Below are positions 12,439-43,866 of a stretch of 64,000 bases of DNA, piece after piece. The position numbers and the translations under genes were made by a program. The first letter of the stretch is position 1. Every line of letters starts with the position of its first letter. Below the pieces are notes generated by a model that made no database searches, was not told the origin of the DNA, and saw nothing but the letters and a program-made list of their open reading frames with translations. Source of the DNA: Candidatus Poribacteria bacterium (GTDB lineage Bacteria > Poribacteria > WGA-4E > WGA-3G); contig OZ242029.1 of assembly GCA_965205015.1 (NCBI GenBank), positions 2,656,001-2,720,000 of the forward strand, in the 5' to 3' direction.

Positions 12439-12627
12439 ATGGCACAATATGACACAATCGTTAAACACCTTTTGGAATATTTTGCAAGCGAATATGCACG
12501 GGTAGCACTCGGCATACAAAATGTAGAAGTCTTATCGACACTCAACACAGAGCATCCCTCGGTCAAGATGCTTCATAACGATATTTCCCTGAAAATAAAA
12601 CTCGATGACGAGACAGCCATACTTCAC
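12439..12627 (+). pseudogene. Rpn-like (PD-(D/E)XK) gene, 5' part, interrupted by IS
   Basis: MAQYDTIVKHL...HNDISL...AILH stops at the IS left end. Confidence 0.7.
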
Positions 12628-12713
12628 CTAATTTACGGATTGGAAGCCCCGAACCTTTAGGTCGGGGAGGAAAATCCGCCCTCTTGGAAAGGTCCAAAAC
12701 GTTCATTTTTTTC

Positions 12714-12743
12714 TTGACATATCGTCTGAAATTGTGGTAGAAT
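12714..12743 (+). promoter_or_regulatory. Sigma-70 promoter of tnpB
   Basis: TTGACA-N18-TAGAAT with extended TG. Confidence 0.75.
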
Positions 12744-12747
12744 GAGA

Positions 12748-12837
12748 GTATCAGGTTGGCAGACAGTGTTTAGCATTACCGCTTGGTAATGTGTCTGCCT
12801 CCCACTAAGCAGGGGATAAATATCTGATACCTGATAT
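12748..12837 (+). ncRNA. Pseudoknotted 5' leader RNA of tnpB
   Basis: Four helices plus pseudoknot, covarying with 43639-43724. Confidence 0.7.
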
Positions 12838-12840
12838 ACC

Positions 12841-14042
12841 ATGAACCTAACCTTTGAATATCCTGTGTATCCAACACAGACACAGGAAGAAACCTTATTA
12901 GGATGGCTCGACCATCTCTGTGAACTTCAGAACTCTGCGCGCAACAATCGCAAACATGCGCATGAGACAGAAGGTCGTTTTGTTTCGCGATATGACCAGG
13001 AGCAACTCTTGAAGATTGCCCGTAAGAAATATGACGATTTTCGGGAAGTCCCTCAAGATTTCCAAGTGTCTATCCTCAAGCGCGTTGACAGGTCCTTTAA
13101 TGCATTCCGTAAGCGGTGTAAAGAAGGAGCAGCGAAAAAAGGTTACCCTCGCTACAAAATGCGTGTGCGTTCTCTGACGTGGTGCTTGCGTAAACATAAA
13201 CGCAAAACAGGTGAACGTGTCCGTCAAAACCCGATAAAAGCAACCGACTTTCGCCATAATCGCTTGAAAGTGCCGAAGTTGGGTGAAGTCAAGATACGCA
13301 TGCACCGCCGGCTTGAAGGCGATCCGAAAGAAGTGACGCTCGTGAAAAAAGCAAGTGGCTGGTATGCTCATATTACCTGTGAACTCCCCGATACTCCCAA
13401 AGTTGCGCCGACCGATGCGGTCGCTGTTGATGTCGGCACGACACACTACCTGACGACTTCTGAAGGTGAAACAGAAGATAATCCGCGTTGGTATCGCAGG
13501 TCCGAAGGTTTGCTACGAAAACACTCTAAAGCCCTTTCTCGAAAGAAAAAAGGCAGCCAGCGTTGGCAGAAACAACAACACACACTCGCTTTACACCATG
13601 AGCGAACCGCGAACAAACGCAAAGACTTTATCGGTAAACTCGTCTACAAACTCTATCATCATCTAAAAAACAACGTCCTTATCGCTGAAGACCTCAGCGT
13701 ATCTAACATGGTTCAGAATAAACACCTCAGCAAGAGCATCAGCGATGCATCTTGGGCAAAGTTCTTTCAGTGGGCTGGGAACATGGTTCCGAAAGAGACG
13801 GTTTCCACTTCCACCAAGTCGATCCTAAGAACACTTCGCAAACCTGCTCTGCCTGCGGTAAGAAGTCGCCAAAGAAACTGTCGCTGGCGACACGCACCTT
13901 TAATTGTAGTTTTTGTGGCACGGTTTTAGACCGCGACCACAATGCTGCAATAAACATACTTTTGCGGGCGGCTTGCGCCCATCGTGGAGAGCGTTGGGTT
14001 ACCAACCTCTATGAAACGAGAAACTTACCGGTAGACCGGTAG
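12841..14042 (+). pseudogene. tnpB: TnpB RNA-guided nuclease, frameshifted near 13786
   Basis: RuvC-I AVDVG and RuvC-II AEDL in one frame; TSQTCSACG, CSFCG and DRDHNAAINIL in another. Confidence 0.9.
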
Positions 14043-14098
14043 GCTTGTTGGAACTAACACGCTAACAAGCCCCATGCTTTAGCATGGGGTACTATGAC
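13960..14098 (+). ncRNA. TnpB omega/reRNA scaffold (guide would extend into the flank from 14099)
   Basis: Overlaps tnpB 3' end; GTGGAGAG...CTCTATGAAAC...RE hairpin layout; 5' boundary approximate. Confidence 0.6.
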
Positions 14099-41889: not shown

Positions 41890-42112
41890 TACAAACGTTT
41901 CCCTTTTTTATTTGGGCATACGGGTTGTGCCCTTTGTAATTACAGAATATAGGGGAATTATAGCAGATTTTCAATCCAAAATCCAGAAGAAAATGTGTCA
42001 ATCGCTCATAATATGTTTGACACCAATCCGATACATCGCATAAAATTTCAGTTACGAGAAATAAGAGCAGGACATACGCAATTTGCGGGTGATACGCTAC
42101 AGTTCACACGCC

Positions 42113-42139
42113 GCTGGCGAGGTTTCAAACCTCGCCAGC
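42113..42139. repeat. REP-like palindrome
   Basis: GCTGGCGAGGTTTCAAACCTCGCCAGC; near-identical unit at 54043-54070. Confidence 0.75.
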
Positions 42140-42180
42140 ACAGGGGCTGCGTAAGTCCTAAAGAGATTGGAGGGAAACCA

Positions 42181-43194
42181 ATGAAGATCACAGGCTTTGA
42201 ATACCGGACCATCTCTATTCCCTTTATTCCTGCAATACAGGAGCACTCGGGCATGGAGTATCCGACCACCTTGGTTTGGGTGCACACAGATGAAGGTTTG
42301 ACAGGATTGGGTGAGAGCAATTCCCTGAACAGCGATATTACAGACCAGGCTGGTCAAATCGCCGAAAGATACGTCGGCAGAAATCTTTGGGATATTGATC
42401 TCGCTTCGGAGTCATTTGTTTTCCAGTGCGCCTTTTACGATTTGGCAGGACAGGCGTTGGGTGTGCCTGCGTATAAGTTAATCGGTGAGAAATATAGGGA
42501 TAGCGTTGAACTCGCCTATTGGTCGCCACCAATGCCAGCGGAGGCGACAGCAGCAGAGGCAGAACGCGCCGCGAACATGGGTTTTCGGGTGCATAAACTT
42601 AAGGCTCGGCAGGCGAATATTGTCGAAACCGCGCGTCTCATCAAAGAGGCATGCGGACCTGATTTCCAGATTCGTGTGGATCCAAACACGGAATTTGGAG
42701 ATTTGGAGACCGGTCTCCGACTTGCGGAAGCGTTACTGCCATATAATATTGAAGTCTACGAAGACCCGATCCGATTTGAGGATTTGTCTTGGTATCGTCA
42801 GATGCGAGAAGAGGTGGAAGTCCCGGTCGCTCGACATTTGGGAGCACCGCCAGGCATCTTAGAGAATATCCTTGCGGGTGCAGTGGATGCGGTCAACATG
42901 GGTGGGAACGTCGCCGGACTCCGCAAAAGTGCCGCCGTTGCTGAAGCGGCTGACTTACCAATCTGGGTGCAGATCTTTGCATTCGGTTCATGTGTCGCGT
43001 CGACCTTCGCGGCGCACATTGCATGTACACTGCCAAATTGCACAATGCCGATTGATGAACTCCCACACATCCGCGTTGACGATCTCTCTGGGGGCAGTAT
43101 GGACCTCTCAAACGGGGCAATCCACCTATCGGATGCACCAGGATTGGGTATCAGCCTTGATATGGACGCGGTTGAGCGGTATCGGATTCGTTAG
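42181..43194 (+). CDS. Mandelate racemase/muconate lactonizing enzyme family protein
   Basis: TDEGLTGLGE, KLK, RVDPN, EDP; GGAGG RBS. Confidence 0.88.
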   Translation: MKITGFEYRTISIPFIPAIQEHSGMEYPTTLVWVHTDEGLTGLGESNSLNSDITDQAGQIAERYVGRNLWDIDLASESFVFQCAFYDLAGQALGVPAYKLIGEKYRDSVELAYWSPPMPAEATAAEAERAANMGFRVHKLKARQANIVETARLIKEACGPDFQIRVDPNTEFGDLETGLRLAEALLPYNIEVYEDPIRFEDLSWYRQMREEVEVPVARHLGAPPGILENILAGAVDAVNMGGNVAGLRKSAAVAEAADLPIWVQIFAFGSCVASTFAAHIACTLPNCTMPIDELPHIRVDDLSGGSMDLSNGAIHLSDAPGLGISLDMDAVERYRIR

Positions 43195-43384: not shown

Positions 43385-43866
43385 GTGATACTACCCAACG
43401 CCTAAAGGCGTGGGAGACCTCGGTTTCATAGCGATTGCGGTTTTCGCGCAAGCGTCCACCGTCTGACTATCGCTCCACCAGCAGGCTCTTATTCCGAATC
43501 AGATCGGCTTTATCTGGTTTAGGTCCAGGGTACCCCAGCCTGCAAAAGATTGTAGTTGGATAGCGAAACAAGGCGTAGGGTTATAAATCCGCATTCGGCT
43601 TATATGCACGCTATCCGATATACTTTTAGAGTGGTATGGCACTTCGCACCGTATAACCCCTTTCTACGAGGGCGGTTAGGACTCTCTCAAGCGAGAGAGG
43701 TAGAAATCCTAACCAAGTGCTGATATTAATTATACCACAATTTGAGAAAGATTGCAAACCTTTTTGAGTCCACTCGTAACCTCTTGTTTTCTGTTTCTTG
43801 GATAAGAGGCGCGGAGGTTACCGATTGGACCCACACTTAAAGGAATGGGCTTTCTTGACAATGCCC
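43385..43866 (-). mobile_element. Non-autonomous ORF-less IS200/IS605 derivative (482 bp)
   Basis: Target TTAC (43870-43867), guide AAAG + LE hairpin CCCATTCCTTTAAGTGTGGG; RE hairpin CCCACGCCTTTAGGCGTTGGG ending TCAC at 43385; omegaRNA-like GGTGGAGCGAT...ATCGCTATGAAAC. Confidence 0.8.
43729..43757 (-). promoter_or_regulatory. Near-consensus sigma-70 promoter inside the ORF-less element
   Basis: TTGCAA-N17-TATAAT with extended TG; shares AAATTGTGGTA.AAT with the tnpB promoter. Confidence 0.8.

Follow-up and report, generated by a model that had tools for sequence, protein, structure and literature searches.

What separates the promoter of a Poribacteria tnpB gene from its start codon, and what might it be doing there? 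Cas12 descends from TnpB, which is itself a compact genome-editing tool, and the balance between the nuclease and its guide RNA is under active study. In the 64-kb stretch of Poribacteria DNA analysed here (the window, 64,000 nucleotides), the original prediction placed two RNA folds, of different sequence but the same pairing, just behind similar promoters of IS605-type elements. We followed up this prediction with folding, covariance models and comparison with relatives from public Poribacteria genomes.

A pseudoknotted fold occupies the interval between promoter and start codon

The features of the first copy and of its element, all on the plus strand, are as follows.

12623 to 12627, plus: flank word TTCAC just outside the left end, likely target/TAM-like, at a putative boundary
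12636 to 12678, plus: two-tier subterminal hairpin of the left end; both stems covary among elements
12714 to 12743, plus: internal sigma70-type promoter, TTGACA-18-TAGAAT with a TG extension; 11/12 matches, kept in relatives
12749 to 12836, plus: leader RNA fold, copy 1 (pairing read from sequence, MFE folding, covariance model)
12749 to 12756, plus: P1 5' strand, TATCAGGT, followed by a single T
12758 to 12765 and 12792 to 12799, plus: P2, GGCAGACA/TGTCTGCC; G after the 5' strand, T after the 3' strand
12767 to 12773, plus: pseudoknot 5' strand, the bulge TGTTTAG
12774 to 12780 and 12785 to 12791, plus: P3, CATTACC-GCTT-GGTAATG, with loop GCTT
12801 to 12803 and 12813 to 12815, plus: P4, CCC/GGG; A after the 5' strand
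12805 to 12811, plus: pseudoknot 3' strand, CTAAGCA, in the P4 loop, followed by G
12816 to 12820, plus: junction ATAAA, followed by T
12822 to 12829, plus: proximal P1 partner, which includes ATCTGAT
12829 to 12836, plus: distal P1 partner, ACCTGATA, followed by TACC and ATG
12841 to 14042, plus: tnpB (OrfB_IS605) with a frameshift near 13787 (Pfam; alignment with intact relatives of 430 to 435 aa)
14070 to 14089, plus: right-end hairpin, CCCCATGCTTTAGCATGGGG (alignment of elements)
to about 14098, plus: end of the copy 1 element, ...TACTATGAC

MFE folding of copy 1 recovered P1 to P4 with z = -4.2, and 0 of 200 shuffles folded as well; its pseudoknot, TGTTTAG/CTAAGCA, contains one G.U pair. 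As predicted, similar promoters (TTGACA-18-TAGAAT and TTGCAA-17-TATAAT) stand just before the folds of both copies; both are near-consensus and of sigma70 type, and in each the -10 element ends 5 to 6 nt before P1. The internal promoter of copy 1 is predicted to start transcription where the fold begins, and P1 of this fold ends 4 nt before the tnpB ATG, a distance originally put at 3 nt. All 51 of the genomic matches that we sampled end in ATG, with an ORF of at least 300 aa following in 30 and shorter, apparently broken ORFs in 21. A right-end-type hairpin lies 1,196 to 1,369 nt downstream in 41 of these 51 matches and at 571 nt in one, likely a mini-element, while the pattern used found none in the remaining 9. 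Contigs from the single RNA run (among 22 runs) contain relatives that cover 29 of 30 bins; such contigs are uninformative on transcription, starts, ends and strand.

The start of the window tnpB has no SD within 20 nt, compared with SDs at 19 of the 44 long ORFs in the window (background, 12.5%). The prediction that the fold hides the SD did not hold up: the AGGGG tract at 12811 to 12815 is 26 to 30 nt upstream of the ATG, too far for a Shine-Dalgarno sequence, and "sequestering the SD" is therefore a poor description of what the fold does. No terminator follows the copy 1 fold on the plus strand.

The limits of the element were read from alignment. In 10 aligned elements, similarity starts directly after a TTCAY/TTTAY word, and the copy 1 element probably starts near 12628. 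Its left-end hairpin consists of an outer stem, CGGATT/AATCCG, and an inner stem-loop, CCCCGA..TTTAG..TCGGGG, at 12647 to 12667. The window tnpB is in two pieces, an ORF at 12841 to 13929 (362 aa) and another at 13752 to 14042 in a different frame, the latter with a zinc finger and a DRDHNAA (RuvC-III-type) motif. Two letters are missing at 13787 in contigs of three sequencing runs, and this tnpB copy is probably a pseudogene, or else there is an assembly error near that position. By analogy with known elements, an omegaRNA scaffold should lie just upstream of the right-end hairpin (14070 to 14089).

Two further observations concern the left part of this element. At 12439 to 12660 (plus strand), a 73-aa ORF that matches nothing in Pfam extends into the left-end hairpin, whose loop supplies its stop codon (the TAG of CTTTAGG); the insertion may have altered the end of a host gene, or the ORF may be chance. 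In addition, an inverted repeat surrounds the -35 box (window 12688 to 12730), e.g., GGACCAAAACG...CGTTTGGTCC, AGACCAAA...TTTGGTCT and ATTAGAA...TTCTAAT. The repeat also occurs in L002, L007 and L030 (at about 1350 to 1395) and in L232 to L240 (at about 1380 to 1420), changing on both sides between elements, autonomous ones included. The repeat may act as an operator or, as a hairpin, block transcription that reads in from outside.

The leader covaries across Poribacteria

A TnpB search of genome contigs yielded 63 loci, 62 of which are titled Poribacteria and one "uncultured bacterium". An anchor pattern located the fold upstream of the ATG in 56 of these 63, and several of the other 7 were matched later by a covariance model. 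For alignment A2, the structure was written by hand over 40 leaders and the pairs were counted: 96.3% of cells pair and 22 of the 33 pairs have compensatory changes, a result reached by 0 of 500 shuffles, whereas slid partners gave 31 to 45% paired. We then built a covariance model, R1, from P1 (with the distal partner), P2, P3 and P4 only, omitting the pseudoknot and the proximal partner. R1 scored copy 1 at 104.8 bits and copy 2 at 58.5 bits, with no third match within the 64-kb window. The R1-aligned set comprised 104 matches, 95 of them distinct, in which 95.0% of cells pair, as against 26 to 54% when the partners were slid by 1 to 3 columns. Compensatory changes occurred at 28 of the 33 pairs in these 95 sequences, so the claim of one pairing scheme in different sequences, for P1 to P4 and the pseudoknot of both window copies, was borne out.

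Since the pseudoknot was left out of R1, its covariation is independent support. All 7 of its pairs covary in the 95 sequences, with up to 6 pair types and 52 distinct 7-mers. Complete pairing at all 7 positions was found in 70 of the 95 sequences; when strands were swapped between sequences, the mean was 4.0 and the maximum 10. Cells with G.U numbered 117 versus 45 with A.C, which indicates that the tnpB sense strand is the folded strand. Certain unpaired bases are nearly invariant (91 to 99%): the single U linking P1 to P2, the U linking P2 to P4, the A that follows the P4 5' strand, and UAAA behind P4. These conserved junction bases adjoin helices that vary freely. Altogether, these data confirm that the leader fold is a real, conserved, covarying, pseudoknotted structure of the sense strand.

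Some members carry insertions of about 28 nt in the P3 loop, as is typical of a solvent-exposed loop. In L009, L117, L151, L188 and L245, which come from different genomes, the insertion of about 28 nt forms a hairpin itself (CCCC..TTCCCA..GGGG).

P1 can form in two registers

On its 3' side, P1 has two tandem copies of a 7-nt strand, e.g., CACGATA-CACGATA, CTTGATA-CTTGATA or CGAGATA-CGAGATA. Pairing with the P1 5' strand was found in 93.9% of cells for the proximal partner, which is outside R1, and in 93.6% for the distal one. Both partners change in step at two variable positions, where AU, CG, GC and UA were all seen; replication slippage, not selection for pairing, could in principle keep the tandem repeats alike. 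The two registers are mutually exclusive and isoenergetic, with nearest-neighbour means of -26.14 and -26.08 kcal/mol; the lower-energy register is the proximal one in 66 sequences and the distal one in 24, with 5 ties.

TnpBs 38 to 46% identical to the main clade follow a divergent leader type. Its P1 is another sequence altogether (GGCUUUC), again with two GAAAGCC copies, and P2, pseudoknot and P4 (CCG/CGG or UCC/GGA) are likewise its own. RNAalifold recovered P1, P2 and P4 of this type without manual input. On the other hand, only one P1 partner is present in 3 of the 95 leaders, L021 and L033 among them. A tnpB matched over residues 1 to 359 nonetheless lies behind the L021 leader, so the second register is not indispensable.

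The fold belongs to tnpB-only elements of Poribacteria

A covariance search upstream of tnpB homologs, which the original prediction had named as its check on conservation, detected the fold in many Poribacteria genomes. R1 matches numbered at least 33, at least 55 and at least 64 in three Poribacteria genomes, with 150 of roughly 900 to 1,250 candidates scored per genome. Of 150 Poribacteria genomes sampled, 77 had at least one match and 73 had none. The tnpB-only (IS1341-type) IS200/IS605 members that carry the fold are expanded in sponge-symbiont Poribacteria. At 85 to 112 bits, the fold precedes TnpB clades that are 24 to 26% identical to each other; across these clades the leader, promoter and hairpin types are alike, while the right-end regions differ or align only around the terminal hairpin.

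The same genomes contain Y1 transposase genes (8 to 34 matches per genome). Autonomous tnpA-tnpB elements share the two-tier left-end hairpin and the promoter type of the fold elements. In them, the promoter is followed by a short leader with AAAGG/AAGGG and then the tnpA ATG; only 1 of 12 tnpA loci had an R1 match, which was weak and offset. Because autonomous elements share the ends without the fold, the fold is not needed for TnpA-type ends. In L230, an autonomous element, tnpB overlaps tnpA by ATGA and its product is 57% identical to one TnpB encoded behind a fold. This likeness, together with the shared left end and promoter, indicates that the fold occupies the place of "SD leader plus tnpA".

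TnpB relatives from other phyla (30 to 37% identity) had an R1 match at E<=1 in 0 of 48 loci, in comparison with 13 of 19 further Poribacteria loci. We also scanned genome contigs with the exact core pattern CCTCCCAC-N6-RGGGATAAA. Among the matches listed were 43 loci not titled Poribacteria, where a real fold was found in two "uncultured bacterium" records only, L188 (53 bits) and L132 (cut); the other nine R1 hits among the matches listed were weak, with E values of 0.02 to 0.7. Two weak matches, L114 and L161, were rejected as leaders, as both lie within apparent coding sequence of the opposite strand (...PLTVGGG...), which we take to be a HisA/HisF-type motif. Exact-pattern matches in other phyla are chance.

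A tnpB-less mini-element carries the second copy

The second copy lies on the minus strand and is composed of the following features.

43385 to 43866, minus: tnpB-less mini-element of about 480 bp with predicted boundaries, ending ...TAGTATCAC
43757 to 43729 (43729..43757), minus: mini-element promoter, TTGCAA-17-TATAAT with TG
43639 to 43724, minus: leader RNA fold, copy 2; same architecture with other helix sequences when 43724 to 43639 is read on the minus strand
43720 to 43715, minus: P1 5' strand, GCACTT
43714 to 43707 and 43681 to 43674, minus: P2
43706 to 43700 with 43667 to 43661, minus: pseudoknot
43699 to 43693 and 43688 to 43682, minus: P3
43672 to 43670 with GGG in 43660 to 43657, minus: P4
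43650 to 43646, minus: proximal P1 partner, GGTGC
43644 to 43639, minus: distal P1 partner, AAGTGC

MFE folding recovered P1 to P4 of copy 2 with z = -3.0, and 3 of 200 shuffles folded as well. From a left-end hairpin (43849 to 43830), the mini-element runs through promoter and fold into the final part of a tnpB 3' end, where an omegaRNA-like region lies, and on to a right-end hairpin (43414 to 43394); its 3' part closely resembles, and aligns with, the 3' end of an L084-type element. Nothing TnpB-like follows the fold, and the ORF beside it (41995 to 43194, plus strand, 399 aa) is an enolase-superfamily (MR_MLE_C) gene according to Pfam. Both folds had been predicted to sit at the 5' end of tnpB transcripts. 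This applies to copy 1 and not to copy 2, whose element, on the minus strand, lacks tnpB and could be a guide-RNA-only, non-autonomous derivative.

Comparison with known RNAs and regulatory systems

Rfam 15 gave 0 matches in the 64-kb window at the gathering score. At E<=10, no match fell on the fold in either window copy, and at E<=1 none fell on the fold in six other leader-bearing loci, in line with the novelty that had been anticipated with respect to Rfam. ARAGORN detected no tRNA or tmRNA at 12600 to 13000. Our literature search found no description of such a tnpB leader and no paper that joins TnpB with Poribacteria. A "Poribacteria-1" motif was reportedly described by Weinberg et al. 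in 2017. The main text of that paper (PMC5737381) contains neither "Poribacteria" nor "IS605", and "Poribacteria-1" was found in no paper; an entry for this motif in Rfam 15, if there is one, would be among those that did not match the fold. Relative to Rfam 15, and unless it is itself "Poribacteria-1", the leader is a new, well-supported structured RNA family.

The TnpB omegaRNA (reRNA) is likewise a structured, pseudoknot-containing RNA from the same element; however, it overlaps the tnpB 3' end and continues into the flank as the guide, whereas the fold lies about 120 nt inside the left end, has no flank-derived part and is common to TnpB clades about 25% identical. We rejected the fold as an omegaRNA on these grounds: left rather than right end, no guide and no co-variation with the TnpB clade. 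The prediction that it is separate from the right-end omegaRNA agrees with its location inside the left end, between promoter and ATG. The omegaRNA of IscB/IsrB (HEARO, RF02033) does lie 5' of its gene and resembles the fold as a structured RNA upstream of a transposon nuclease gene, but the fold has no guide segment at the element border. In the window, RF02033 did not hit the fold; its only hits, at chance level (E = 6 to 8), fell on left- and right-end hairpins read on the opposite strand. The fold was also rejected as a TnpA subterminal hairpin; a separate hairpin occupies 12636 to 12678, and autonomous elements lack the fold, bar the weak, offset match at 1 of 12 loci.

Leaders that gate translation by alternative or delayed folding are known from the MS2 maturation gene and from fold-back inhibition in IS10. 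In these cases too, the 5' end pairs near the start site and competing folds decide ribosome access; we know of no tandem duplicated partner strand or pseudoknotted junction in either. In IS200, the tnpA 5'UTR is reported to contain a stem-loop and to be associated with the antisense RNA art200 and a 5'UTR-derived sRNA (PMC4513863, PMC5435999). That leader, as reported, limits expression of its own element's protein, as ours may, and belongs to the same element superfamily; it is a simple hairpin over a real SD before tnpA, whereas the fold, which precedes tnpB, combines a pseudoknotted three-way junction with two P1 registers and lacks an SD, and the two show no sequence or model similarity. 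The fold has the position in the 5'UTR next to the start codon that marks an IS200-type repressor, but not the pairing with an SD. By analogy, it would work most like the structured IS200 tnpA leader, in a far more elaborate form and without SD pairing. A 2026 preprint reports that the Arc protein represses IS605 promoters (bioRxiv 10.64898/2026.09.24.754181). Arc, as reported there, is likewise a layer that restrains the strong native promoter output of IS605-family elements; it is a protein on DNA, whereas the leader fold would be an RNA acting after the transcription start. The main text of that preprint mentions no UTR, leader or secondary structure.

A model for the leader and its alternatives

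We see roughly even prospects for a model in which a cis-acting, two-register leader throttles the SD-less translation of TnpB and caps the 5' end. In tnpB-only (IS1341-type) elements, the fold would then make up the entire 5' untranslated region of the tnpB mRNA, transcription from the strong internal promoter presumably starting at, or within about 2 nt of, the first P1 base. The RNA would form a three-way junction of P1, a long P2-P3 arm and a short P4 hairpin, with a 7-nt bulge of the long arm paired to the P4 loop, and its 5'-terminal strand could pair with either of the two tandem 7-nt complements directly before the SD-less start codon. The proximal register would leave about 15 nt before the AUG single-stranded; in the distal register, pairing would reach position -5. 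The two registers may set, and possibly switch, the number of transcripts that are translated into TnpB, while the base-paired 5' end would be protected and the other transcripts could serve as omegaRNA precursors. With the guide RNA overlapping the 3' end of the ORF, a low, set translated fraction would, we conjecture, serve the element well. Three roles had originally been proposed, and translational control is the best of them on other grounds than those first given: the fold has a constant place between the predicted transcription start and the ATG, P1 has two registers, and an SD leader is replaced; nothing was found in support of a second RNP component or a ribozyme. Counting against the throttle model, the mini-element keeps the fold without any ORF.

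Occluding a start site would take no more than a plain hairpin. The pseudoknot and the near-invariance of the junction bases (U, A, UAAA) hint that some specific partner or ligand is involved; TnpB itself is an unlikely candidate, as TnpB clades about 25% identical share the leader. A more ambitious form of the model is a bistable sensor or partitioning device belonging to a new class of RNA, in which a ligand, a host factor or folding kinetics would pick the P1 register and decide, for each transcript, between TnpB translation and guide-RNA precursor. We hold this form to be doubtful; if true, it would be an RNA-level answer to the conflict between translating tnpB and folding the overlapping 3' omegaRNA. 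That a complex and strongly constrained leader replaces an SD leader points to a layer of RNA-based control not reported before, and the pseudoknotted three-way junction with its duplicated helix strand is a new family ready for probing, ligand screens and reporters. The family was found in a single phylum of uncultured bacteria, and its function is a putative one.

Several other readings were weighed against the two-register throttle. The fold might guard a poorly translated transcript from 5'-end-dependent decay, or block Rho-dependent or other termination, as far as the 3' omegaRNA. The paired 5' terminal bases, a tnpB without SD, the independence of the fold from the TnpB clade and a mini-element that retains promoter, fold and omegaRNA-like part with no ORF would all fit such a stabiliser; yet it would require neither the strict, short distance to the ATG nor a duplicated P1 partner beside the start codon, autonomous elements make an omegaRNA without the fold, and likely mini-elements (right-end-type hairpin within less than 600 nt) account for only 1 of 51 sampled matches, which together make this reading unlikely. 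That the junction with its docked arms is an aptamer for a small molecule or for a host or transposon protein, whose binding picks the P1 register and switches TnpB translation, seems quite unlikely. Conserved unpaired junction bases beside freely varying helices and registers that are isoenergetic and mutually exclusive are consistent with a sensor, as are two arms held side by side by a loop contact, presumably much as in junction-type riboswitches; no Rfam riboswitch matched, however, the gene context suggests no ligand, and TnpB is an unlikely partner of a leader common to clades about 25% identical.

A role in trans, with the leader cut off to act as a small RNA or as the second RNA of the TnpB complex, would fit the compactness, stability and autonomy of the fold and its tens of copies per genome; regulatory RNAs have been reported from the IS200 5'UTR (PMC5435999). 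This is very unlikely in our view: 51 of 51 sampled copies are fused to the ATG, no plus-strand terminator follows the fold, and neither the pseudoknot 7-mers nor the P1 6-mers recur consistently elsewhere in the elements. A variant, "barcode pairing in trans", was rejected, as neither the pseudoknot 7-mer nor the P1 6-mer had a consistently placed third partner in guide, omegaRNA or flanks (75 and 82 parsed elements). A pseudoknotted junction with few invariant bases at the transcript end of a mobile element might also recall a self-cleaving ribozyme that trims the transcript; no ribozyme family matched either window copy at E<=10 or any of six further leader-bearing loci at E<=1, and there would be nothing upstream to remove, given that the transcript is predicted to start at P1 already, so we regard cleavage as highly improbable. 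Barely credible, too, is a single-stranded DNA structure for TnpA-mediated transposition. The fold does share its strand with the hairpins of both ends, and DNA tolerates G.T pairs, but autonomous tnpA-tnpB elements with the same ends lack the fold (1 of 12 loci, weak and offset), and the fold is bordered by the predicted transcription start on one side and the ATG on the other.

Other tnpB loci

Two groups of related loci merit mention. In L292, L309, L312 and L313, which belong to Latescibacterota and are the nearest TnpB relatives there, TTGACA-17-TATATT (at about 1160 to 1203) stands a few bases before the ATG, which suggests that these tnpB mRNAs are leaderless or nearly so, a different answer to the same problem. 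In a single 4.0-Mb genome (G003), L094 to L109 represent many copies whose ORF stops after 136 codons, and the elements are of full length with right-end hairpins; they may be a decayed subfamily that kept spreading, or a case of recoding.
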